In this document: in pieces, positions 18,725 through 64,000 of the stretch
How positions within the stretch are numbered: position 1 is the stretch's first letter
Layout: every line of letters begins with the position of its first letter
Source: Eledone cirrhosa
Taxonomy: Eukaryota
Assembly (NCBI GenBank): GCA_964016885.1
Contig: OZ024743.1
Coordinates: 227,416,001-227,480,000 of the forward strand
Direction: 5' to 3'
Length of the DNA stretch: 64,000 nt
Program-made: the position numbers and the translations under genes
Notes under the pieces: model-generated
Seen by the model: only the letters and a program-made list of their open reading frames with translations
Told to the model about the DNA's origin: nothing
Databases searched by the model: none

Positions 18725-21085
18725 ATATATAAGATCAAAAGATGGTTAAAAGAGTTCCATGTATTTTATTATGCGCGTTTCAAAAACAAATATCATCATG
18801 CGAAGACATTTGCGTTTTCGTCAGATAAAATAGGGAGACATGATATGAAGGTTAAAAATCACTTGTGAATAGTGCAGTTCTAAATCAACATATGAAAAGT
18901 AGTTTTAGATTGATGTGTGATATTGGGAAAAAAATTTGAGGGGAGGTTGGAAAGGATGAAAAAGAAGAGGAGATGAGAGTAAAGAATGGAGGGGGAGGAG
19001 TATAATAAGGAAGGATGAGATAGGATGAGAGATGGGTGATAGAGTGAGAGAGATAGCTTTTATAACTGAGAAAAATATATTGTTTTACATAGAGAGGTTA
19101 AAAAACCGTTGGAAGATAATATATAAATTAAAAGAATTGGAAAATTAACGAAGAGAAAAATTTTAGAATAATGTTAAATTAAGGTTTGTATATTGAAGGG
19201 TTTAATAATAATTTAAGGGTTTAATAATATGTGCGATGGAAAGAAATTGTTGATATGTATTATTAAAAAAATATAAAAATATGATAATAGTAATGTAATT
19301 AAGGATATATTGTGAAAAGAAGTAGAAGAGTGGATGAATAAGTGTAATATGTATCAGTTAGATGAGCATGAAAGGGAGAAAAAATAATGAATTGAGGATG
19401 AATAATCTAACGTCAAAAAAATGTTTATGTTTACGAAGGATTTTTCAAGGTGATATTATAAAGTATGTAAAAGGGTAAGGATATATTGTGGTGAGTAGTA
19501 ATGAGAATTGAGAAGTATCTAGGAAGAAAAGGTACAGATTAGAGGTTAGAAATTAAAAGAAAAAAAGAAAAAAAGGAAAAAAAAAAAGAAAGAAAGAGAA
19601 GTGATAAATAGGAGTGATATAGAATGAGTAACTAGTATTATATAATATATAATAAATAACATTGAAATAAGGTAGAAAGATCGGTATATTTTTAAAGAAA
19701 TATATATGTATATATATATGTGCCTTTGAGAAAAGGATTTTTTAAATTGGTAAAGTATTAGATATTAGCTGTATACTTTATGGAATGTTCTGTGGAATTT
19801 ATGCAAGCAGAGAGAAAACAAGTCAGTGCGTCTATTTATTATATAATCTAAATTAGATATAATGGTAAATTTCTCACATAAACAGAGATTACATGTCTTG
19901 GATAGAGAACCATTCAAGTATGTAGAAGCAGAACAAACCTTCCTCCAAGATATGTTATAGTTAATATTTTTGTCTTTCAAGGACCATATGAGTTCTGAGA
20001 GTGCCGTGTTGGTTAATTTAAGTTGGTATTTAAAAGACGAATGATGATTATAAAGACGAGCTTTAAAGGAGGTGGAAGTGGAGCCAAAATAGGTAAAGGA
20101 ATTGGTGTCAGTTATAACTTTACATTCGTAGATTAAGTTTTTTCCAAGACAATGGTTGTTGAGAGGACATTTATTTTTAACAGGGCAATTACAATTGCGA
20201 TTAGAGAGATTAACAGAGTTATTAACAAGTGACCTAGTGTTATCTATAGAAGGAATTGGATTGGAGAAGTTATTTACGATATGAATAATAGTTTCTTGAT
20301 TTAGAATGGGATTAAGAACATTTAATGAAGTTGCGTTTGACGTTGTATTTGGGTTTGCAGAAATTTCCTAGAGTTAACAATGACGTCGGGAGTACTATTA
20401 CTATTATTATGATATTCAGTGTTGGAAGGAAGAGATTTAGTATTTAGTATTTTATTGTTGTGTTTAGAGATAATGTTGGAGATGTTGGAGGAGGTCGAAT
20501 AGGAAAATTGTATAGTGTGTTTGTTAAATATTTTACTATAGATATGTGAGGGAGGGAAGCATTTATTTAAGGCACTAAAGAATAATTTAGGAATACTATT
20601 ATTAATAGAGATGGAGAAAGGAGCATTATACCAGATTATGTTTTTGTATCTAGGTCTTTTATTAAAGTTATTGGAATGATCATGATTAATTATTCTACTG
20701 TAAGATCTTCTAGAATTTGTTTCTTTACTATATTTGATTTCATCAGGATAACCGGCTTTAGAAAGCGCGTTATTATAGTAATTGGCGTTAGCATCAAAGA
20801 TATTTTTATTAGATGATAGGTTGGATATTCTTTTTCCAATATTATAACATTCTTAATATTAGTGGGGTGGTTAGATTTAAAATTAACATAATTTAGGTTC
20901 TCATTGTTTTTATGGGCCAGTGTCAAGATTAAGAGATACATCCAAGAAATTAGCTAGTTTGATGTTGTTATCAAATTCAATTTTTAAGTTATGTTGGTTA
21001 AAGAGATTACGAGATACATCCAAGAAATTAGCTAGTTTGATGTTGTCATCAAATTCAATTTTTAAGTTATGTTGGTTAAAGAGAT
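18725..21085 (-). mobile_element. Penelope-like element (Naiad-type), inverted 5'-truncated arm
   Basis: reverse complement of 21521-23796; RT thumb ANFLDVSLNL..SNHP, CNC...CPL..HCL linker, GIY-YIG and CNLCLCEK tail. Confidence 0.9.
18762..18832 (-). ncRNA. type I hammerhead ribozyme (family A)
   Basis: TATTTTAT-CTGACGA-stem II-GAAA-CGCGCA-TA-ATAAAATA. Confidence 0.8.
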
Positions 21086-24045
<2,960 letters not shown>

Positions 24046-34179: not shown

Positions 34180-34338
34180 ATATAAGATCAAAAGATGGTT
34201 AAAAGAGTTCCATGTATTTTATTATGCGCATTTCAAAAATAAATATCATCATGCAATAACATTTGCGTTTTCGTCAGATAAAATAGGGAGACATGATATG
34301 AAGGTTAAAACACACTTGTGAATAGTGCAGTTTTAAAT

Positions 34339-34346
<8 letters not shown>
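34178..34346 (-). mobile_element. solo family A pLTR arm with HHR at 34215-34285
   Basis: near-identical to 18725-18892 and 39090-39256; between (TA)n/(TAA)n tracts. Confidence 0.9.
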
Positions 34347-38206: not shown

Positions 38207-38388
38207 GGGTATCAAAAAATAAATATGGTATTTATAGGTCTCTACAAGTGGTAGGAGAGGGTGGGGAGTGGGATGGGTGCAGGTCATTGGTTGATAGAAA
38301 AGGGAATTCATTAAAAGCTAATTCTACAAAGCTATAGTTTATTTTTATTTATTTATGTTTTTAGAGTAACAAGGGCAGACAGAATTCT

Positions 38389-39096
<708 letters not shown>

Positions 39097-39126
39097 AGAT
39101 CAAAAGATGGTTAAAGGAGTTCCATG

Positions 39127-39197
39127 TATTTTATTATGCGCATTTCAAAAACAAACATCATCATGCAATAATATTTGTGTTTTCATCAGATAAAACA
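39127..39197 (-). ncRNA. type I hammerhead ribozyme (family A)
   Basis: mirror of 39316-39386. Confidence 0.85.
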
Positions 39198-39315
39198 GGA
39201 GAACATGATATGAAGGCTAAAAAACACTTGTGGATAGTGCAGTTTTAAATCAACATATGTTGATTTAAAACTGCACTATCCACAAGTGTTTTTTAGCCTT
39301 CATATCATGTTCTCC

Positions 39316-39386
39316 TGTTTTATCTGATGAAAACACAAATATTATTGCATGATGATGTTTGTTTTTGAAATGCGCATAATAAAATA
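39316..39386 (+). ncRNA. type I hammerhead ribozyme (family A)
   Basis: TGTTTTAT-CTGATGA-AAACACAAATATTAT tgc ATGATGATGTTTGTTTTT-GAAA-TGCGCA-TA-ATAAAATA. Confidence 0.85.
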
Positions 39387-39507
39387 CATGGAACTCCTTT
39401 AACCATCTTTTGATCTCATATTATGTATACTCCAGTCCTACAAACTGTAGAGTGCTTCTTATCCGATATCTGCATTGCTTTATTGTACTACAATAAAACT
39501 CACCTCC

Positions 39508-39589
<82 letters not shown>

Positions 39590-45730: not shown

Positions 45731-46047
45731 TGTGTGGGTGCATTTGTATTTATTCGTGTGTCTGTGCACACGCATGCGCCTGCTTATCTATATCGATAAT
45801 ATTTCATTAAGAAAATTATGTCCACCACCTAAGTGAATGCAAAGTATGCGACTACTTGAAATATAGGCCATGTAACAATGCCTTATATACATGATCGTGC
45901 TATTACTTTCGTGCACTATAAAACAGCTTGCTGAATGAACTAAACATGCTTAAATATTACACAAATATTACACACACGCTTAGGTATATATATATATATA
46001 TATATATAATGTTAAAATATAAATATTAATGTTCTTTTGATCAATTA

Positions 46048-46102
46048 CATTTTATTATACATATTTCGGATGTACAACAGTACGTCCTCATCAGACAAAA
46101 TA
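46048..46102 (-). ncRNA. type I hammerhead ribozyme (family D)
   Basis: TATTTTGT-CTGATGA-GGACGTAC tgtt GTACATCC-GAAA-TATGTA-TA-ATAAAATG. Confidence 0.85.
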
Positions 46103-46210
46103 TAATGATACATGACATACCCTGAGATGTTAAATGGTTAAGATTTAATCAAGGTAGTACCTAATTAAATCTTAACCATTTAACATCTCAGGGTATGTCA
46201 TGTATCATTA

Positions 46211-46265
46211 TATTTTGTCTGATGAGGACGTAATATTGTACATCGGAAATATGTATAATAAAATG
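46211..46265 (+). ncRNA. type I hammerhead ribozyme (family D), stem II base mutated
   Basis: TATTTTGT-CTGATGA-GGACGTA atattg TACATCG-GAAA-TATGTA-TA-ATAAAATG. Confidence 0.75.
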
Positions 46266-46406
46266 TAATTGATCAAAAGAACATCTATTTTATTAATATT
46301 TATATTTTAATATTAATAACTCCGGAAAATTATTTTTTACCGTAGAGTGCTTCCAATCTACTGTAAAACTCATTCTTTGACATACTCATTGAATATTTGT
46401 TAACAC

Positions 46407-46479
<73 letters not shown>

Positions 46480-51840: not shown

Positions 51841-52039
51841 CGGCGGTGGATTGGCAGTATCGGTAGAGAGTCGGACGCCATGCTTTCCAGCATAGTTACG
51901 TCCCTTTTCGGTTTGAGTTCAAACCCCGCCGAGGTTAAATTTGCCTTTCATCCTTACGGGGTCGATAAAATAAAGTACCAGTAATGTAGTGAGTAATTGC
52001 TGGCCTTGTGTCAAAAGTAGAAACAATTATTATTATTAT
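51841..52039 (+). mobile_element. SINE family 1, near-intact, with (ATT) tail; partial copy upstream at 51690-51795
   Basis: GGCGGTGGATTGGCAGTATCGGTAG A-box region and GAGTTCAAACCCC B-box. Confidence 0.9.
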
Positions 52040-52802
52040 AGTTGCATTTATCTTGCTTTATGGTCATACGAGTTATCACCAAGTCACAACCAGTGACCTC
52101 AAGAGACAACAAGGTCCGCCATGTTCAAGAAAGAACATACATACACACACATGCATCTTTAGATGTTTAGACTTGTGATGTACTTATATTGACAGGATCT
52201 TCCTTAGTATATGGGCAGTTCCCATTAGTACTCTCTTTTGTATTTCTCCTATACGCGGATTTCCTGGGATTTGCGATAAGTAATCATTAGACCCCTTAAG
52301 TATCATTCCTAGAGAGCCTACAACCACTGGTATTGTTTTAGTTCTCAATTTCCACATTTTTCCACTTTCTATCTCCAGGTCCTTATACTTGCTCAATTTT
52401 TCAAATGTTTTTATAGATACATTCTTGTCTATTGGAACGGACATATCAATTAGCAGGCATACCCTCTTTTTAAAGTCCTTCAGTATTATATCAGGTCTAT
52501 TTGCATCTATTTTTCGGTCTGTTTGGATGCTAAAGTTCCACAAGATTGAGATGTGATCTTTTTCAAGTATAGGAGGTGGTTGATGCTCCCACCAATTCTT
52601 TTGATGGGGCAGGTCAAAATGCTTACACATTATCCAATGTATGTATTGTGCAGCTCTGTCATGCCTGTTTAGGTATTCGGTTGGAACTATAGGACTGCAC
52701 ATTGAAATTATATGATCAATGGTCTCTGGTTGTTTTTTACATACACGGCATAATGGGTTGAAACCATTTTTTATTTTTTATTATGTTGGCTTGGTAATTT
52801 TT
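52040..52802 (-). mobile_element. Dong/R4-like RLE LINE, 5'-truncated copy
   Basis: highly similar to 56133-56887; RHD motif and RPDII..LIDMSVP..K..KY endonuclease. Confidence 0.9.
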
Positions 52803-52809
52803 TTTTTTA

Positions 52810-55800
52810 TTTCTTTCTGGTGGATACGTCTATTACTGTTAGCGGGGGACTGGAATGGCATCTTAGACGCACGCTGGGATTGTGTGGGAGTAGCCGATAG
52901 GATCGGGGGGTGCAAAAGCCTCAAGCACCTACTCAGCCAGTTCCACCTGTCTGACGGGTATCGACTAGATTTCTCCAATGTGCCAGTATGGACATGGACC
53001 AACCGAATGGGGTCATGTAGATCGTATATAGACAGGATCTTCATTAGGAAAATAAATAGAAATAGTGTGGGCTGCCCATTTTTTAAAACGGTCGCCTATT
53101 CAGATCACAAATTTGTGATCTGTACGGTCGACCTAGATAAAACGCGTAGATTAGGACCGGGTTACTGGAAGCTGAACATGTCATTTCCGGCACGTAAGGC
53201 TTACAGGGATCGAGTTAACAATTTAGTTAAGCAAAAGTTGACAGGGGGGAATCATCAACAACAGATGGTGGGGCTTTCAAAAGAGAGATTAGAGTAACTT
53301 CGATAGAGTTCAGCAAAGAACTAGCGTTAGAGAAAAATAGAAAGGAGGGGAGCTGGTAGATAAGTTAGACGAGGCTATTTGTAGTGGCATTGCAACTGAC
53401 GTGCTAGCGGCGAAATGGCATTAGACCATTTCTTCAATGCGAAATACGAAGGTTGCATTGTCAGAGCCATAGGCGCGTGCGCTGAGAAACGAGGGAACCA
53501 AAGCTGTTCGATGGGCCCGCGTGGCGGAGGTGCAGCGTGGTAATAAAACCACAATTTGGTCTTTGGCGAACCGAGACGGACACGAGATAAGCGATTCCAA
53601 GCGGATGTGTGAGGCATTTCGCCAGCACTTTGCTCGGTTGTTCGGGGAGAGTGGCGAGGCAGAGAGAGTAGCGGATTTCAGTCCCTACCTTGACGGCTTG
53701 CCGCGCATCTCGACGGTCAACGCTGAGCGCTGCGAAAAGCTGATTACTTCAGCCGAAATTCAGGACGCCCTTGTCGGCTGCATGAGGCGCAAGTCACCCG
53801 GTTTGGATGGCCTGCCCTACGAGCGTTATGTAAATATGTCAGACTTGTTCTGCGATCTCCTCGAAGCACTCTACTGCAACTGGCAGCAGATTGGGAGTAT
53901 TCCCAGTTCTGTGAGCAGGGGAGTGGTGACGCTGATAAGGACGAGAACAAGAGGGATACATTAGACAACTTCAGGCCCATAACTCTGCTCAACACAGAGT
54001 TTAAGATTTTGGCCAAGGTGTTAGCAAAGAGATTGGCGCTTGTCGTCGAGGATTTGGTTGGGGAGGCGCAAAGTTGCGCAATCCCAGCCATACACGACAA
54101 TCACCACCCCATGCGATACATCATAGAGAGGGTAGTGTGCAAACCTGGCTTCGGTGGGGCACTAATCAATTTAGATCAATCGAAAGCATTCGATAGGGTC
54201 GACCATCGGCATCTGGAGTTTGTCCTCAAAGCAGCTGGCTTCGGCCCTGTCTTCAGAAGCTGGATCGCTGCAATGCACAGCGGCACACGCTCGGTGGTCA
54301 AGGTTAATGGCCACCTCTCGGGACCATTTCGGTTCTCCCGATCGGTCCGTCAAGGGTGCTCTCTCTCTTCCCTTCTGTACGTATTGACTCTCGAGCAGCC
54401 TTTACTGCGGAAGCTGAAGCTGTTACAGGGCATCCCGCTCGAACCGGGACGTGGAAAGGCGGTGTCGGCTTATGCGGCCGACATCACCGTGATGGTGTCG
54501 AACGCCTCAGAAATCGAGGTGGTCGGCACTTTATTGAAGGAATATGAAAGGTTGACAGGAGCCAAACTTAACCCGGAAAAGTCGGTGGGCTTGCAGCTAG
54601 GAACCTAGAGAGGCAAGCCCATGCCGTCCAACAGGCTCGTCGGGCGCTGGACGGACGGACCGGTAAAGTTGCTCGGGGTTTGGTTCGAACCAGACCTCCA
54701 GGTGGAAAAGAATTGGGACGAGGTAACGAGCACAGTAGCCAGTCTCACCCAAAAATGGGCTGGGAGGAAGCTATCACAGAAAGGTCGCGCGGAGGTGGCG
54801 AATGCGTACATCGCGTCCGTCATCTACTACCGCATGACCGTCGTGCCTTGCCCCTGTCCGCGCCTCATCAAGTTGGAACGGCTCCTCTTCAAATTCTTGT
54901 GGAGGGGACAAGTTCCGTTGATAAGGCGGTCCATTAGCTGCCAGCACCCTCTACGCGGACGGCTGGGTGTGCCGTGACTAATGATGCGCAGACATGCGTT
55001 GAGGCTGCGACATCTCCAAATATTCTGCCTCAACGGTGAACAGGTGTGGTCGCCGTTTATCAGACGGGCCTTTCCGCAGCTCATTTCTTTGAGCTGCAGT
55101 CCTGGGTCAAGAAGAGACCGAGACTGGGTGACTGGCACCTGGAATGTTGCCAGGCACTCACTGCCCTCTACCAAGCGGGCAATGCGATCAATGGAACTTC
55201 CACTCTCGAGTTCTATAGAGGATTGGTCGTGGGAAGTGCGATGACGCACTCGGAGAAGCTTTGGGCCTCGACGAAGTCGAACTGACCAGTCTGTACTGGA
55301 GGACTTTTGAGCCGGGGACGATGGACAATTTCCAGAAATCCCTCGCTTGGCAGTGCTACCGGGGGGCTCTGCCGGTTCGGGATAAACTCTACAGGCACGG
55401 AATGCGCACAGAAGGACGAAACCGTTCTACACGCACTTGTCCAATGTCCGTGCATTACTGACTTGTGGAGTTATGTCGAACAGCTACTGTCGCGTGTTGA
55501 ACGAATCCGGCTATCGGCCGAGTCCATAGTGAAAATCGACCCATCGCCTTCCTTAGGTCAGGAAGAGCAGGAAATTTTCCTATGTCTGGTGGCAGTTGCG
55601 AAAGAGGTTATATGGTGGACCAGGTTAAAAGGACTGAAGACAGACACTTTTCTCTTCGGCCAATCCCTCATCAACTTCTTCAAGTTTCACCTGGAAAGGA
55701 AGGTGAGGGTGGAGAGAGAAGTGCTGCCCCCAGTCCATTTGCTAAAGGGTGGGTGAATGTGGCGAGAATGGCTCGTGTGAATGGACCTACTCTGACCATG

Positions 55801-56086
55801 CGCCTATAGGCTAGATAACTTGAGGAGAAGAGTGCTCTACCTGGGTGCCCTAGAAATGCAGGGTGGTTCAGGATTGGTGGGGTACCCGAGTCACCCCAGG
55901 GTCGTCCACCCCCTGTCGGGGAATTTATTTTGTTATTTTTATGCATAGTTTATTTTATATTTGTATATCTTCATTGTTAAATTAGTCCTGCCATTGTGCA
56001 CTTTTACTCGACCTTATTGTAAACCCCCACTGTCCCTGTCTTTGTATTGTCCCCTACATGTCGGCCCCTGTGGCTAATAAATGAAA

Positions 56087-56088
<2 letters not shown>
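52810..56088 (+). mobile_element. Tx1/L1-like LINE, 5'-truncated ORF2 (APE C-part, RT, C-terminal Cys domain), frameshifted
   Basis: AGDWN, SYIDRIF, SDHK, PGYWKLN, KSPGLDGLP, LDQSKAFDRVDH, SVRQGC, AYAAD; 3' AATAAA followed by (ATT)n. Confidence 0.92.
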
Positions 56089-56132
<44 letters not shown>

Positions 56133-56133
<1 letters not shown>

Positions 56134-59100
56134 GTTGCATTTATCTTGCTTTATGTTCATACGAGTTATCACCAAGTCACAACAAGTGACCTCAAGAGAC
56201 AACAAGGTCCGCCATGTTCAAGAAAGAACATACATATTCACACATGCATCTTTAGTGTTTAGACATGTGATGTACTTATATTGACAGAATCTTCCTTAGT
56301 ATATGGGCAGTTCCCATTAGTACTATCTTTTGTATTTCTCCTATACGCGGGTTTCCTGGGATTTGCGATATGTAATCATTAGACCCCTTAGGTATCATTC
56401 CCAGAGCGCCTACAACCACTGGTATTGTTTTAGTTCTCAATTTCCACATTTTTCCAATTTCTATCTCCAGGTCCTTATACTTGCTCAATTTTTCAAATGT
56501 TTTTATAGATACATTCTTGTCTATTGGAACAGACATATCAATTAGCAGGCATACCCTCTTTTGAAAGTCCTTCAATATTATATCAGGTCTATTTGCATCT
56601 ATTTTTCGGTCTGTTTGGATGCTAAAGTTCCACAAGATTGAGATGTGATCTTTTTCAAGTATGGGAGGTGGTTGATGCTCCCACCAATTCTTTTGATGGG
56701 GCAGGTCAAAATGCTTACACATTATCCAATGTATGTATTGTGCAGCTCTGTCATGCCGTATTAGGTATTCGGTTGGAGCTATAGGACTGCACATTGAAAT
56801 TATATGGTCAATGGTCTCTGGTTGTTTTTTGCATACACGGCATAATGGGCTGCACCCATTTTTTATTATGTTGGCTTGGTAATTTTTTGTTGGCAGACAC
56901 TGATCTTGTGCTGATATAATCAGTCCTTCAGTCTCCGATTTCAGTCCAGAGGATGCCAACCACTGATGGGTTAAAGTTTTGTCAACATCAGGATTGTTAG
57001 CTCGCTCTGGGTATTTTCCATACAGAGGCTTTTCTTGTCATTTCTTAGCCAGTTTCTGTAGCAGTTCTTTCTTTGCAGTTACTTTTACCTGCTTTGCCTT
57101 TTCTGTGTTTTCCATTTCAGCAGTAAATGGGACTTCTGAAATTGGTAGTCCATTACTGTATCTTTGTGCATCTTTTGTAATGGAATATGATCTTTTGATG
57201 CTTTCGTGTTTCAAAACGAGTTTGATCATCCAATCATGTGATTCCCTTAGATATGTAGATAATCCAATTGTTGCAGTTTTCAACGCAATGTCTAACTGGA
57301 TTAACCCACGTCCTCCTTCTTTCCTAGGGAGATATATTCTATCTATATCTGCCTTAGGGTGATGAATTCTGTGCATGGTTAAGAATTTTCGAATTTTTGT
57401 ATCGAGCCTACGGATCTCTGTGCTTGACCAGTTGATGACATTGTAACTGTAGGTTACTACTGGTATGGCAAGCGTGTTTATGGCATCGATCCTATTCCTT
57501 GCATTCAATTCCGTTCTTAAGATTGCTCTTACTCTGCGGTAACATTCCTTCCTTATCCTTTCCCTCATTGTCGAGTGCTTGATTCCGTCTCCTTCACAAA
57601 CACCTAGATATTTGTAAGTTTTTTCTTGATCAAGTTCTCTTATCACGTTCCCCCGATCAAGATTAATGTCTGAACTCTTCAGCAGCTTTCCTCTGGTGAA
57701 CGTTGCTTTGGCGCATTTATCTAGTCCAAACTCCATTTTAATGTCATCACTGAACTGCTCCACAGTGGATAATAGCCCTTGCAATTGTTCATCATTTTTT
57801 GCAAATAGTTTCAGGCCATCCATGTAGAACAGGTGATTAATGGTTTTGTCATAGACTTTATATCCATGTTTTGTTTCATTGAGCATTTTACTTAATGGTA
57901 TAAGTGCGATGCAGAATAAAAGCGGTGATAAAGAGTCACCCTGAAAAATTCCACAATTAATATTAACTTCTCCAGCTTCCAGTGATTTTGTTTCACTATT
58001 CAAAAGGAGTGTCGTTTTCCATGAATGACAAAAACCTCCTGACAACGGGGGATATTTTGAAAATCTCTAAACATTTTTCAATCCAACTGTGTGGCAAACT
58101 ATCGAATGCTTTTTATAATCTATCCAAGCAATCGATAGATTTTTGTGTCTATTATGACAATCTTCCAGTATCATTTTGTTAACCAGAAGCTGATCCTTAC
58201 AGCCATATGAGCCTCGTTTACACCCTTTCTGCTCAATGGGAAATAGGTCATTTGTTATCAGGTGGTCATATGTGTATTCAGTTAGGACTGATGTTAAAAT
58301 TTTATACATTGTGGTCAAGCAAGTTATCGGTCTGTAATTTTTGGGATTGTTTGTCTCATCATTCTTCGGAAGCAGGAATGTAATGCCGTTAACTAGCCAT
58401 GATGGTATCTTTTCTGGCTCCTTAACTATTTCATTGTAAAGTTGGGCTAACAGCTCATGAGACTCTGTGAAGGCATTTATCCAAAAGTTTTGTATTTTGT
58501 CTTTTCCTGGGGATTTCTATTTGCTGGTTTTTCTTAGAGCCAAGCGCAACTGTTAAACTGTTATATTTTCCCATATTTGTTCCTCAAGGTGAACTGTATC
58601 TTTCATTTGTCTGTCTATCCATGGGGCATGTATGTTATGAACTTTTTCTTCGGCCCAGATCTTTTCCCAGAATTCTTGCACTTCCTCCTTGGGTGGTATT
58701 GATTTAGCAGTTATTGTTGACTTACTAATTTTTCTGTAGAAATTTCTTTGGTTGTTTTTGAACATATTATTGTCCTTATAGAATCTAGATCGTTTTTCAA
58801 AGCGCCTTATACGAGCAGCTTTGGCCGACACTTTTTGCTTGATTATTTCTATCAGCATGTCTATGTCACATGTTGATTTTATACTGTACTTTTTTTTCAA
58901 TTTTCTAAGTTTAGTTTGTTTAACATGTTCACCTACTTTATAGTTTGTTAAAATTTCTATGTCAGATCGGAGAAGGTTTATTTGGCGATTGATGTTCTCT
59001 TGCCAAGTAGATTTCTTGTGGGAATTCCTTTGTTTTTTCATCTTCACTCCACATAAGTGAGTGGTGACTTTAGCCGATGCATAATAGAGATGATTTAAAT

Positions 59101-59600
59101 CAGTAATGTTTAGTTTGTTTGTGATGATAATGTTTTTGAGAATTATGTTAGTCTTGTGTATTATCAATTGGTTCTGTTTGGAGTTCTGGATCTTAGGGAG
59201 GGTGTCTCGTTGCCCCATGTCAGATTCTTTCATTTTCATCCATTCGATCATAATTTCATCCTTCAAGTTGGCAAGTTCATTCTCATTCATTTCTTTATCA
59301 ATTACGATCTCATTATTTTCATTTGATTTGGAGTTTCATCTTGAGCATGCACTCCCTCCACTTTTTCGATCCTTTCTTTAATTTGTTCTGTTGCCAGTGA
59401 TTCCGCCCCAACCCTGGGATTCGAAGTGTTACAGTTTACTTCGTTTTCACTGACACATGTTTCATTTTCCCTTCGCTGACTTCGTGCTAATAGCTTGATC
59501 TGATCAATTTCTATATCAGTTAGTAACTTTTTTCTTACAATATTTCTTCGTATATTGGCTAGTTTGTTACTGTCAATATAGCCTCTGTTTTCGGGATGTT
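56133..59600 (-). mobile_element. Dong/R4-like RLE LINE, nearly full ORF, disabled
   Basis: NYRPITCL, EQKGC, AWIDYKK, GIFQGDSLSPLLF, LFYMDGLKL (YMDD>YMDG), CRVC..ETIDHIISMC, RHD, RPDII..IDMSVP; flanked by (TAA)n on both sides; stops and frameshifts. Confidence 0.93.
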
Positions 59601-59615
59601 TTCTTCTTCTTCTTC

Positions 59616-59678
<63 letters not shown>

Positions 59679-59892
59679 TGGCGACCTACGTAGTAAATCG
59701 TATCATCGTTAGCTCCGCAAACGTTTGTTATTTTCAGTTGTTCAAAATTGCCATTCATGGAGAATTTTATTGTTAACTGTATATAAGTGCACATACGTTG
59801 TTATCTGAAAAGGACACCCAAAAAAGATTGGGGCTTGAGCTTAAAATTTAAACTTTTATAATTATGAAACAAAAATTTTTCTTTGAAACATC

Positions 59893-61830
59893 ATGGCTGA
59901 CTCAGAGTTATTCCTTTCTCACAAACTAACACCTCACACCGACACCACCATTGTAAATATTACTACGTTTGCCAACACAAAAAAAAATATAAGCAGTAGC
60001 AATATTTTAAATTTGTCTCAGGCAGACATTCATTTCCAGCCATTACCAATGACTGCAAGTGATAAAGCCACCACCACCACCAAAACCGCGACAACCACCA
60101 CCCCCATCACCACCGCGACAACAGAAACAAAAGAAAAAAATAAATTAACTCGTGATATCGAAATAAATTCACCCAAAATGAACGCTTCCACAACGAACAC
60201 CACTGACGCCACCACCACCACAACTGAAACTAAAATTAATAATAACAAAAATAACGATAACAACAACAGCAACAATGACATTAAGAAAACCAGCCTGAGT
60301 TTTGCCAGAGTAGCAAAACAGTGCGAAGCATTTCAGGTAGCACAGGAGAAATTAGAAGAAGCCAAAAAAATGGTAAAGAAAGATGGGTACAGGGTCAGCC
60401 TCACCCCCGCCCCCTAATAAAATGGAGCATCGGCGCCTATGCACCGTGTGTTATCGAACAATTAATATAAAATCGCGCCGAGTGGAACGGGCATCCGAGT
60501 CCCAAATCTAAAAAGCTTTTGGACATGTGTGGCCAAAGAAACTCCACATCAGACGTGGGCAGAAGTATGGAACCGTGGACGTGTTCTTTGAAACACCACG
60601 GGAGGCTAAAGAACACTCCATGGCCCCATTAAGAAGTGACGATTTCACACTCGTCCCAAGCTATTGTGGACAGAGACTCGTAAATATCATGGTCACCCAC
60701 GTTCCACCGGCCATCGAAATTCCCTGGCTAATAGCTGCCGTCCTCGCCCGCATCGAAGCCAACACCAAGATAATCGAAATAGCGAAAGAAAAGCAGGAGA
60801 ACTGGTCCGGATCTGGGATGGAGCTCCTGATCCAAGCGGACCAAAAAAGCATTGAGGAGATCCCAGAGGTAATAGACCTCACTGACGGCAGCCACCTCAC
60901 CGTAATTGTCGAGGGCAGAAGGCCTAGGTGTGTCGTTTGTGGTGAAGGAACCCACCTAAGGGCTTTCTGTCCTCAGGTTAAAAGGTTGAGGCCACCTCTC
61001 CTACCCACTCAAGTGACTCAACCATCAACACCACCAGCAGCAGAGATGGCAGCAACAACTGTAGCAGCAACAACAGAAGCAACTATAACAGCAACAACCC
61101 CAGCAACCATAACAAAGCCAACACAACCACCACCCAACGCTTCAGAACTAGCACCAGCGCCTACACTATTCACTACGCCACAAACAAAACTAACGCCTGT
61201 GGAGGATTTTCCACTCCCCGGCCTATCACAACTGGAGACAGATTGAGACGACGAGGAGTGAGGAACGGTTTCAGGAAAGAAGAAAAAAAGAAACCAAAAA
61301 AGAAAAAAATTCTCTTCCTTCCCCTCCAAAAACAAAATACAGGGGGAAACAAATAAACTATCAAACAAAAAAGTTAGGACAGATATGCCACCATCGACAC
61401 CAGCATCACCAAGCCCATCACCACAAAACCAACACCATCACCATCATTAACCCCAACACCACAAAAGTCACCAAAAAGGGAAACAGAAACAAACCCACAA
61501 CAAACGCAAACAAAACAAAACAACCAAAACGATACACACTACACAGCATTAAATTTGAACAACAACCAATTATTACACTACATCCAACAGAACACCAGCA
61601 TCACAGAAAAATACTACACAACAACCCAAAAGTTCTCACCACCTCCACACATACAAATCACCCGCATCACACAGAAAACGTACATGACACTAAAACAAAA
61701 ATTCCCCAAAGACATCGGAGACTTCCGACAAACACTCTCCAGGAGGATTTATAAGGACATCCTTCCTGAGGAGGCCACAAGCAGTGAAAAGGATGGAAAA
61801 ACCGTCCTTTCTCTACGAGAAGTAAGGTAA
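59893..61830 (+). pseudogene. ORF1 (gag-like, zinc knuckle) of a Tx1-like LINE starting at ~59677
   Basis: SFARV motif, VEGRRPRCVVCGEGTHLRAFCP (CX2CX4HX4C), Thr/Pro-rich tail; frameshift near 60410 and stops near 61246. Confidence 0.8.
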
Positions 61831-61864
61831 GTGGTCTTTCCCATCTTTTCCACTCCATTTCAAC

Positions 61865-64000
61865 ATGACCTCACTAAATGCGCGTGGCTTGGGGTCGTCA
61901 TGGAAGCAGGGCCACCTGCTCAACGACCTCAGGTCACTAAACATAGATGTAGTGGCCATCAGCGAGACCAGAATCTCCGAAGCACAGGCCTTCGCACCGA
62001 CCTTCGGCGGCTACGATGTGTACGCATCTCCCAGCCATCCTGGATCGGAGGGAGGAGTTGGTGTGCTTTTTCGGAGATGTTTGGATCTCGCCATATGGGC
62101 CATCTTCCTGGACCCAGAAGGTAAGTTGGTGGTGCTGGACGTGACCAGCGGAGACGGGCAAGCTTTCAGGCTAGTGGCCGTCTATGCCCCGACAGGAGTA
62201 GGGCGGCCTGATTTCTTACGGCGTGTGGAGACTTTTCTTGGAACGTCCCGCTCTTTAGTGTTAGTGGGCGACTGGAACGGGATCTTAGATGCACGCTGGG
62301 TGTGTGTGGGATTATCGATTAGGGGAGGAGGGTGCAAGAGTCTCACCAACCTGCTCAGCCGTTTTGAATTGTCTGACAGGTACCGATTGGATTTCCTGAA
62401 TGTGCCAATGTGGACTTGGACAAATCGCGTTGGGTCATCCAGATCATATCTCGATAGAATATTTTGTAGGGAAATTAATAGGTCTAGCATAAGCTGTCCA
62501 CAATTCAAGATAATCAGCTACACGGACCACGAATTCGTGATCTGTGTGCTTGACTTAGATAGGCTTCATAGACGAGTACCCGGCTACTGGAAGCTAAACG
62601 CGTCCTTACCAGGCGCGCAAGGCCTACAGAGACCGGATTAGCGAACTAGTTAAGCGAGCGTTGACGGTGGCCATCGTCAACAACAAGTGGTGGTTTGCTC
62701 TGAAAAGAATCATTAGAATAGAATCCATTAGGTTTAGTAAGGCTTTAGCTATAGAGAAAAATTAGACGAGGCGCTTAGCAAAGGCATAGCGACCGACGTT
62801 CTTGCGGCGAAATTGGCCCTTGACCAATTCTTCAATGCAAAGCACGAAGGCTACGTTGTCAGAGCTAGGGTGCGTGCTCTCAGACACGAGGGGACGAAAG
62901 CCGTTCAATGGGCCCGAGTGGCGCAGGCGCGTCGTGGCAACAAAGCCACGATCCGGTCTTTGGTGGACCACGACGTGCGCATGCTACTCGATCCCGGGCA
63001 AATGTGTGAAGCTTTTCAGCGACACTTCGCTCAACTGTTCGGGGGCAGCGGCAGGCCGGATCGAGGGATGGACTTTAGTGTCTACCTCGACGGACTGCCG
63101 CGGCTCTCGGCCACTGAGGAGGAGTGTTGCGAAAAGCCGATAACAGCCGCTGAAGTACGGGAGGCAATGACTGGCTGCACAAGGGGTAAATTGCCTGGTT
63201 TGGATGGTCTGCTCTATGAACTTTACGTACAAATGCCAGACTTGTTCGGAGGCCTCTTGGCGGACGTCTACTGCAACTGGCAACAGAACGGGAGATTTCC
63301 AGCTCTGTGAGCCGAAAGCTGTGGCGCTGCTGAGAAAGGATCCGAACAAGGGGGATAACATAGATAATTTTATGCCCATAACTCTGCTAAACACAGAGTT
63401 CAAGATCTTGGCCAAGGTGCTAGCAAAGAGGTTGGCGCTTGTCGTTGGTGGTCTGGTGGGAGAGGCGCAGACATGCGCCATTCCCGACAGATCCATCCAC
63501 GACAACCTCCACCTCATGCGATATATCGTAGAAAGGGTAGCTAGGGAACCTAGCACGGGTGGGTCCTTGATCAATTTAGATCAGTCGAAAGCTTTCGATA
63601 GGGTCGACCATCGTTACCTAGCGGCAGTCCTGAGGGCGGCTTGCTTTGGGCCCGTCTTCAGAGGCTGGATCGCTGCCATGCACAGCGACATCTGCTCTGT
63701 GGTGAGAGTGAACGGTCACCTTTCGGAACATTTCAACATCATGCGCTCGGTCCGCCATGGACATCGCCTCTCGTCCCTCTTGTACGTATTGACTCTCGAG
63801 CCATTACTGCACAAAATGGAGACGTTGAGGGGTGTCCCGCGCGAACTAGGATCGGGAAGATCCGTGTCAGCATATGCCGACGATGTCACCGTAGTGGTGT
63901 CGAACGCCAACCACATCGAGGCGATCGGCACTACACTAACAGAATACGAAGCGGTGACAGGAGCAATGATCAACCAGGAAAAGTCAGTGGGCCTGCAGCT
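61865..64000 (+). pseudogene. ORF2 (AP endonuclease + RT) of a Tx1-like LINE; runs off the window end
   Basis: SLNARGL, ISET, GGVGVL, VYAP, VGDWN, SYLDRIF, TDH, GYWKLN, PGLDGL, LDQSKAFDRVDH, AYADDVTV; frameshifts. Confidence 0.92.

Follow-up and report, generated by a model that had tools for sequence, protein, structure and literature searches.

The window analysed here is a 64,000-nucleotide stretch of the Eledone cirrhosa genome (contig OZ024743.1), and the feature of interest within it is a palindrome with a tail, together 423 bases, which lies in (TA)n on both sides. The centre of the palindrome falls between positions 39256 and 39257, with no spacer. The two 167-bp arms (39090-39256 and 39257-39423) differ by a single mismatch, 39096 A against 39417 C, and pairing continues for one base beyond them (39089 with 39424), giving arms of 168 bp, before it ends at 39088/39425. 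The first-pass annotation had described a near-perfect zero-spacer palindrome with a hammerhead on each strand, and this description is borne out, with 168-bp arms, one mismatch and an 87-nt tail. The features discussed below are as follows, with RNA positions counted from a putative capped start.

39042-39088, unstranded: left (TA)n target, which the inverted arm adjoins directly.
39089-39256, minus strand: inverted arm, a tail-less pLTR copy running on the minus strand from its own +1 (39258) to the proposed priming site 1, the TA-rich pLTR end.
39127-39197, minus strand: the same type I hammerhead motif in the inverted arm, found with the same relaxed descriptor as its plus-strand counterpart; predicted cleavage at 39135.
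39255-39258, unstranded: ATAT centre, common to both arms; the putative capped RNA begins with these four self-complementary bases.
39257-39424, plus strand: direct arm, a pLTR, RNA +3 to +170.
39316-39386, plus strand: type I hammerhead motif, found with a descriptor that allows one mismatch in helix II.
39425-39511, plus strand: tail of 87 nt, the portion of the 5' UTR between the proposed priming sites 1 and 2.
39512-39574, unstranded: right (TA)n target, resuming after the tail.
18725-23887, plus strand: long, internally deleted copy (the 5.1-kb element), with a pLTR subtype other than that of the palindrome.
34180-34346, minus strand: solo tail-less pLTR with the same +1 as in the palindrome, directly on (TA)n.

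A target-site duplication is unreadable in a (TA)n target. The 3' end of the tail is predicted to form an 8-bp hairpin next to an AC-rich stretch. The outer end of the inverted arm is identical in most of 50 sister loci on one contig (C1).

A palindrome of this kind could in principle be a fold-back read artefact. This is excluded by flanks that differ, by a tail on one arm only, and by the recurrence of the exact 22-nt centre at 867 loci in the 3.0-Gb genome, where the reversed control sequence occurs 0 times. A contig from one public run (X1), which may be the assembly's own sample, also crosses the centre of a family member; it covers 39218-39300 with four other letters and perhaps comes from another locus. 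No piece from the public sequencing runs spans the window palindrome together with its flanks, and run X22 yielded 0 matching reads. One contig of a further run (X5) has a loose end compatible with a palindromic junction, and is too thin to count.

The palindrome is the ORF-less 5' end, pLTR plus tail, of a Penelope-like element (PLE), probably of Hydra-clade type. Long genomic copies of the element have the order pLTR, tail, ORF, 3' UTR, pLTR, with the tail running on into the ORF, and it is from this order that the arm is identified as the pLTR and the tail as the next portion of the 5' UTR. Within the window, the direct arm and tail match the final part of the 5.1-kb element, its 3' end at 23627-23887, with 91% identity. 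That element consists of an inverted tail-less arm (18725 to about 21010) and a direct arm with a tail (about 21090 to 23887), so that the palindrome can rightly be called its miniature, the order being the same in both: inverted arm, direct arm, tail.

The features of an EN+ PLE are all present in the family. Natural copies (L036 and L055) retain open frames of 805 and 781 amino acids, and each is a single ORF in which RT, with YRDD, is followed by a C-terminal GIY-YIG-like LIYECKV...YFGST...FKARLYNH. The Atlas neighbours of the ORF carry RVT_1, HTH_animal and GIY-YIG, with scores of 0.95-0.97; sequence scans of Pfam and the PDB with the 805-amino-acid ORF gave no match. The pLTRs stand in partial tandem or inverted arrangement with a one-sided tail, and they carry a hammerhead motif, identified by its motif and conservation and with cleavage predicted only. 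Compared by eye with the description in section 11 of PMC8557442, the protein shows the Hydra-type motifs: DKT (as SDKTNN), CxCX5C (as CNCPVKNKC), CxxC (CNLC before CEK) and CxH (CLH after INRR) around E and N, together with insertion into (TA)n. The C-terminal GIY-YIG, the RW and DKT motifs, the CxCX5C linker, the CxxC and CxH beside E and N, the hammerhead in the pLTR and the (TA)n target are all shared with the Hydra clade as that section presents it. The differences are RWI in place of RWK, and a unit of about 3.65 kb against a length which the section gives as 'generally <3 kb'. A further difference is an asparagine-rich stretch between RT and endonuclease, seen both at 20322-20852 and in the L036 ORF, as reported in rotifer Penelope elements. 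Five full-length copies (L037, L047, L050, L052 and L281) have a seamless 3' UTR-pLTR piece upstream and are therefore partial tandems. A possible origin is that the cDNA, having reached the capped end, moved across to the 3' pLTR, much as in retroviral strong-stop transfer.

We next consider how often the palindrome occurs. The figure of 867 loci is a lower bound for short insertions with the same centre, and the locus is thus not unique. Sister loci were drawn from contig C1 in listing order or from the top BLAST matches, and are not a random genome-wide draw. Most of the 50 loci on contig C1 share the plan seen in the window: one arm lacks a tail and stops at the TA-rich end of the pLTR, and the other is tailed. 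Among the first 100 arms, about 20 and about 30 palindromic junctions were counted by eye for the two pLTR types. Copies in which the element start is joined directly to (TA)n give 539 junctions genome-wide, copies with A or G before ATATG (R-ATATG) number 2614, and the upstream context native to one subtype was counted 1787 times. In total the family has roughly 9,000 arms in the genome. A centre set by self-complementarity alone was considered and rejected: a longer palindromic word at +116 in the arm seeds 32 palindromes, against 867 for the observed centre. Taken together, the counts of 539 and 2614 and the comparison of 32 with 867 indicate that the centre is a fixed 5' end, aided but not set by self-complementarity.

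The first-pass annotation had left it undecided whether the palindrome was a mobile unit or a one-off insertion. It is neither. The number of loci argues against a unique event, and the distribution of the window's own haplotype argues against a separate lineage. This exact 108-nt haplotype is present in 1099 arms, and of the first 30 of these, 26 stand at the ends of long copies, two in one palindrome and two at other junctions. Because the haplotype resides mostly in long copies, the palindrome is a recurrent by-product of the element and not a lineage of its own. The one haplotype and two broad types that were followed gave no sign of an independent non-autonomous family of SINE- or MITE-like kind with haplotypes of its own.

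The junctions also give information about the start of the RNA. Among the R-ATATG copies the additional base is G in 84 of the first 100 listed, which corresponds to about 2,200 copies with an extra G before ATATG, whereas the loci concerned contain about 15% G and 34% A. The neighbouring positions give far smaller numbers, with 133 cases of G or C before CATATG and 381 of a base other than A before TATG. When 74 G junctions were compared with the adjoining sequence, 51 were not explained by the next base of the partner, 11 could be accounted for by microhomology, and 12 are possibly the complement of the native C at -1. A cap-like base on both arms was found at 4 of 89 junctions (L106, L184, L233 and L239). 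An extra G at full-length junctions is a known mark of a copied cap in L1 (PMC11702581), and it is likely that here, too, the G was copied from a cap and that the capped RNA starts at the A of 39255. The first-pass annotation had pointed to a CATATG already existing in the parent element as a hint of self-primed snap-back synthesis. That sequence is indeed there, at 23627-23632; it is not needed for the centre, in which only ATAT is shared and whose A is the likely RNA start. On this view the centre consists of the first four bases of the RNA, and the C of CATATG is explained as the base complementary to G at +5.

The distribution of tails follows a simple rule. Of 139 short loci, 14 had no scorable second arm, and among the remaining 125 exactly one tail was present in 121, none in four and two in none. 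The same was seen when long two-armed copies were read by hand (one tail in 18 of 20, none in two, two tails in none). Of these 18 one-tailed long copies, 11 carry the tail on the shorter arm and six on the longer, and one is complex. We also collected 55 loci in which the arm that reaches +1 is tail-less and its partner carries the tail. In 18 of the 55, the partner starts at +155 or later and is nearly tail only, and the long copy L041 is built in the same way. Partner ends between +155 and +168 account for seven of the 55, a cluster that fits a collision of two enzymes and would fit ATAT microhomology as well. Among (TA)n-ATATG copies, 15 of 20 are solo and tail-less, three are solo with a tail and two have a partner, from which it follows that site 1 is usable without a partner.

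The two arms of a locus are closely related. At 16 polymorphic columns in 99 loci, the arms agree in 97.9% of comparisons, against 63% in 1000 shuffles; this permutation test was used instead of a count of private alleles (23 on both arms, 94 on one), which is blurred by three misaligned or truncated loci. The median arm difference is 1 of 148. The alleles of the tail match the subfamily of the arm in all nine informative tail-only loci, leaving out L072, which has an internal deletion. Rare alleles are shared even between arms of long copies that are separated by kilobases (L040, L045 and L054). The two arms would thus normally derive from one RNA. This is not an absolute rule, because one locus (L193) has arms from two subfamilies.

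We propose that cDNA synthesis is primed from both target strands, at two fixed sites of one RNA, and that the two cDNAs join through ATAT, a reading to which we give a probability of roughly 0.7. It is built on the copy number, the fixed ends, the one-tail rule, the tail-only partners, the extra G and the shared alleles. In this mechanism, the element's protein would nick both strands of the (TA)n target, and from each nicked strand a cDNA would be started on one and the same capped RNA, one cDNA at site 1 (about +165, the TA-rich pLTR end) and the other at site 2 (+257, the end of the tail). The downstream cDNA could then either stall in the tail, or displace the upstream cDNA and reach the cap, after which the two cDNA 3' ends would be joined by microhomology or a template jump. 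When both cDNAs reach the cap, both would end in ...CAACATAT, so that they could anneal via the self-complementary ATAT. Each annealed end would then template the second strand of the other, to give a zero-spacer palindrome with a tail on one arm. The short RNA template may be the 5' end of long transcripts, or may come from 3' pLTRs or palindromes with an internal promoter. At several loci, and at the joint 39258/39255 of the run X1 contig, repeats of 8-40 nt of the element's first bases are stacked at the junction (L008, L011, L012, L063, L113, L116 and L202), and both arms of L011 contain the repeat in mirrored form. It is as if the enzyme had re-copied the 5' end of the RNA several times.

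The main alternative is the self-primed snap-back suggested in the first-pass annotation. Here a cDNA primed at the tail end would reach the 5' end of the RNA, fold back, copy its own arm and attach, at the TA-rich end of the pLTR, to the opposite side of the target break; the endonuclease would sometimes trim the tail of the first arm. Such a route readily explains identical arms and gives exactly the same sequence for the window locus, which has two complete arms; the 8-40 nt stutters of the first bases at the junction in several loci would also suit it. There is precedent, in that self-priming has been proposed for head-to-head PLE palindromes (PMC3846280) and snap-back is documented for R2 proteins after full-length cDNA synthesis (PMC11371274). 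However, a zero-spacer centre offers only a 1-2 bp stem for priming, and some two-tailed copies would be predicted, where 0 of 125 were seen. The sister loci place the greater strain on it, because snap-back requires the second arm to be part of the first. Unless trimming at site 1 is invoked, which would make tail-only partners possible, it fails for such partners (18 of 55), for the tail on the shorter arm (11 of 18), for cap-like bases on both arms (4 of 89) and for the chimeric locus. Snap-back as the cause is therefore not supported by the sisters, and we regard it as unlikely, if less so for copies with two complete arms such as the window palindrome. Two separately primed first strands, as in two-ended priming, are needed because of the tail-only partners, the tail on the shorter arm and the cap-like bases on both arms.

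Much less probable is an origin at the DNA level, either as a foldback or MITE-like element or through gene conversion in a cruciform that would have removed differences between the arms once they were in place. Homogenisation is possible for perfect inverted repeats with short spacers, and the low median difference between the arms would agree with this. It does not extend to arms kilobases apart that share rare alleles. In addition, an extra G, graded truncations and a tail on one side only are what reverse transcription leaves behind, and there is no terminal inverted repeat at both outer ends. The tail-only and extra-G classes already go most of the way to refuting this origin.

The hammerhead motifs bear on the last alternative. 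On the plus strand, CUGAUGA is at 39324-39330 and GAAA at 39367-39370, helix III is the palindromic AUGCGCAU, and cleavage is predicted 3' of 39378, after AUA. The relaxed descriptor gave three further hammerhead matches in the window and 0 in 30 shuffles of it, and it missed the right arm of the 5.1-kb parent. A strict descriptor gave no match in the window, because helix II contains a C-U mismatch which it disallows; Rfam at the gathering score gave no match in the window either. A comparison of 228 distinct arms shows stronger conservation in the hammerhead core than elsewhere in the arm (major-allele frequency 0.993 against 0.949). The variants common in helix II alter one side of the helix and leave its pairing intact. 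The single-arm RNA (+1 to +257) folds no better than its shuffles (z -0.79), and its lowest-energy fold is not the hammerhead (-4.0 kcal/mol for the hammerhead target fold against -9.9 kcal/mol). Two same-sense hammerhead copies co-fold through helix III when folding is computed, and the form with a short palindromic helix III is described as active in dimers in PMC4209133. The transcript of the full palindrome is computed to form a single hairpin of -281.5 kcal/mol, and we agree with the earlier expectation that pairing of the arms would block the ribozyme. As the antisense arm comes first on either strand, ribozyme folding is not expected in a through-transcript. That each strand has a hammerhead follows from the duplication of the arm, in which the motif was carried along as a passenger. 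A centre set by the ribozyme cut was also considered and discarded, the predicted cut lying at +124 and the ends at +1, about +165 and +257.

The least probable reading, to which we attach very little weight, is that the palindrome is a mobile lineage of its own, with a viroid- or retrozyme-like hairpin RNA that carries a ribozyme in each polarity and replicates or retrotransposes as a unit: although the many loci with one centre and the well-kept core with paired helix II changes speak for it, palindromes arise in every subtype sampled, the 108-nt haplotype lies mostly in long copies (26 of 30), junctions differ widely among sisters, insertions end at the two priming sites and not at the ribozyme cut, the antisense arm, first in a transcript of either strand, pairs with the ribozyme, and the two same-strand copies that this ribozyme type needs are absent. 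The ambisense, viroid- or retrozyme-like architecture earlier attributed to the locus accordingly finds no support. In viroid-like agents, the plus and minus polarities of a circular replicon carry different ribozymes; here there is one sequence in chromosomal DNA, an exact inverted duplicate of a single dimer-needing ribozyme. Non-LTR retrozymes consist of head-to-tail units with same-strand hammerheads, whereas the present units are head to head with one motif per strand.

Similar arrangements are found elsewhere in the window. A second hammerhead-bearing family, at 46007-46410, consists of an inverted arm, a short spacer, an arm and a tail, in (TA)n, and has 2153 arms genome-wide. Nine of 10 short two-armed loci of this family have one tail, none has two, and two are tail-only; inspection by eye of four copies that reach the apparent start revealed no extra G. 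Its tail shares GTAGAGTGCTT, a candidate protein-binding motif, with the tail of the palindrome. Beside the palindrome, at 38851-39044 and 38385-38526, (TA)n holds another short repeat, whose two inverted arms are 50 bp long and which is extended on one side. It was matched in about 50 of the sister loci, which makes it a very common family, and was possibly made by the same route as the palindrome. A third short unit in the same (TA)n cluster (38653-38818) has inverted arms, a 19-nt spacer and a one-sided extension. The region 52026-64000 is occupied by nested, broken non-LTR retrotransposons, labelled here from their translations: on the minus strand, two copies of an RT that ends in a type IIS-like endonuclease (52184-52777 and 56276-59335), and on the plus strand, two copies of an APE-RT element (52716-55756 and 60512-64000).

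Several parts of this picture are already in print, namely inverted pLTRs with junction palindromes, one-sided tails and opposite-strand hammerhead pairs. The closest counterparts are the EN+ PLEs of Adineta vaga (PMC3846280, with an overview in PMC8557442), which have head-to-head pLTRs, a junction palindrome, a tail at one end, AT-rich targets and an Inr-like start in the pLTR. In contrast to these, the copies described here are ORF-less and stereotyped, there are at least 867 with the exact centre, and the tail is 87 nt long instead of 30-40 bp. The same two papers propose self-priming on an antisense template or resolution by the endonuclease; the present copies instead suggest a sense RNA on which two first strands were primed.

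In vitro work on the Poseidon element of Anolis (PMC11167929) provides the nearest biochemical parallel. Both target strands were cleaved and extended by this anole PLE, two RT start sites bounded the tail, and a dimer was predicted; the AC-rich start, the AT-rich target and a ribozyme cut that was not needed are further similarities. Poseidon belongs to another clade, however, and the text consulted does not link two-strand priming to inverted copies or describe a short palindromic product. Twin priming by L1 (PMC11702581) is also alike, in that both target strands prime on one RNA, joining is head to head through microhomology, and a cap-derived G is found at full-length ends. As described there, a minority of L1 insertions involve the second primer, which lands wherever chance allows, and there is hardly any overlap between the two pieces. 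Here both positions are fixed, copies with two arms are common, and in many cases the downstream cDNA continues through the template of the upstream one. Finally, the animal non-LTR retrozymes (PMC4209133) are likewise non-coding pLTR derivatives with a type I hammerhead of the dimer-needing kind. They form head-to-tail arrays cut into circles, where the palindrome is head to head with one motif per strand. Schistosoma has dual minimal hammerheads on opposite strands, 100-700 bp apart (PMC4209133; bioRxiv 10.64898/2026.07.22.740005). Neither a two-ended model for PLEs nor a high-copy capped palindrome was found in the literature searched, which had most subscription journals, including several older Penelope papers, outside its reach.

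The origin of the tandem and inverted structures of PLEs, and of their one-sided tail, is listed as an open question in section 15 of PMC8557442. Two-ended priming would explain these long-puzzling inverted ends. With rather less confidence, though we put it somewhat above even odds, we suggest that PLEs integrate from both ends by default. A dimeric RT-endonuclease would prime both strands at two fixed sites of one RNA, leaving a one-sided tail and inverted copies and, when priming takes place at the 5' pLTR, capped strong-stop palindromes by the thousands. Short, young copies of the family number in the thousands, and the RNA start, the two priming sites and the joining step can be read from their junctions, which makes PLE integration testable. 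Opposite-strand hammerhead pairs in animal genomes can be by-products of insertion, which calls for caution in searches for viroid-like RNAs. Inverted copies of Penelope yield siRNAs in Drosophila (PMC3681739), and a genome with many perfect hairpin loci, such as this one, could in the same way feed small-RNA silencing.
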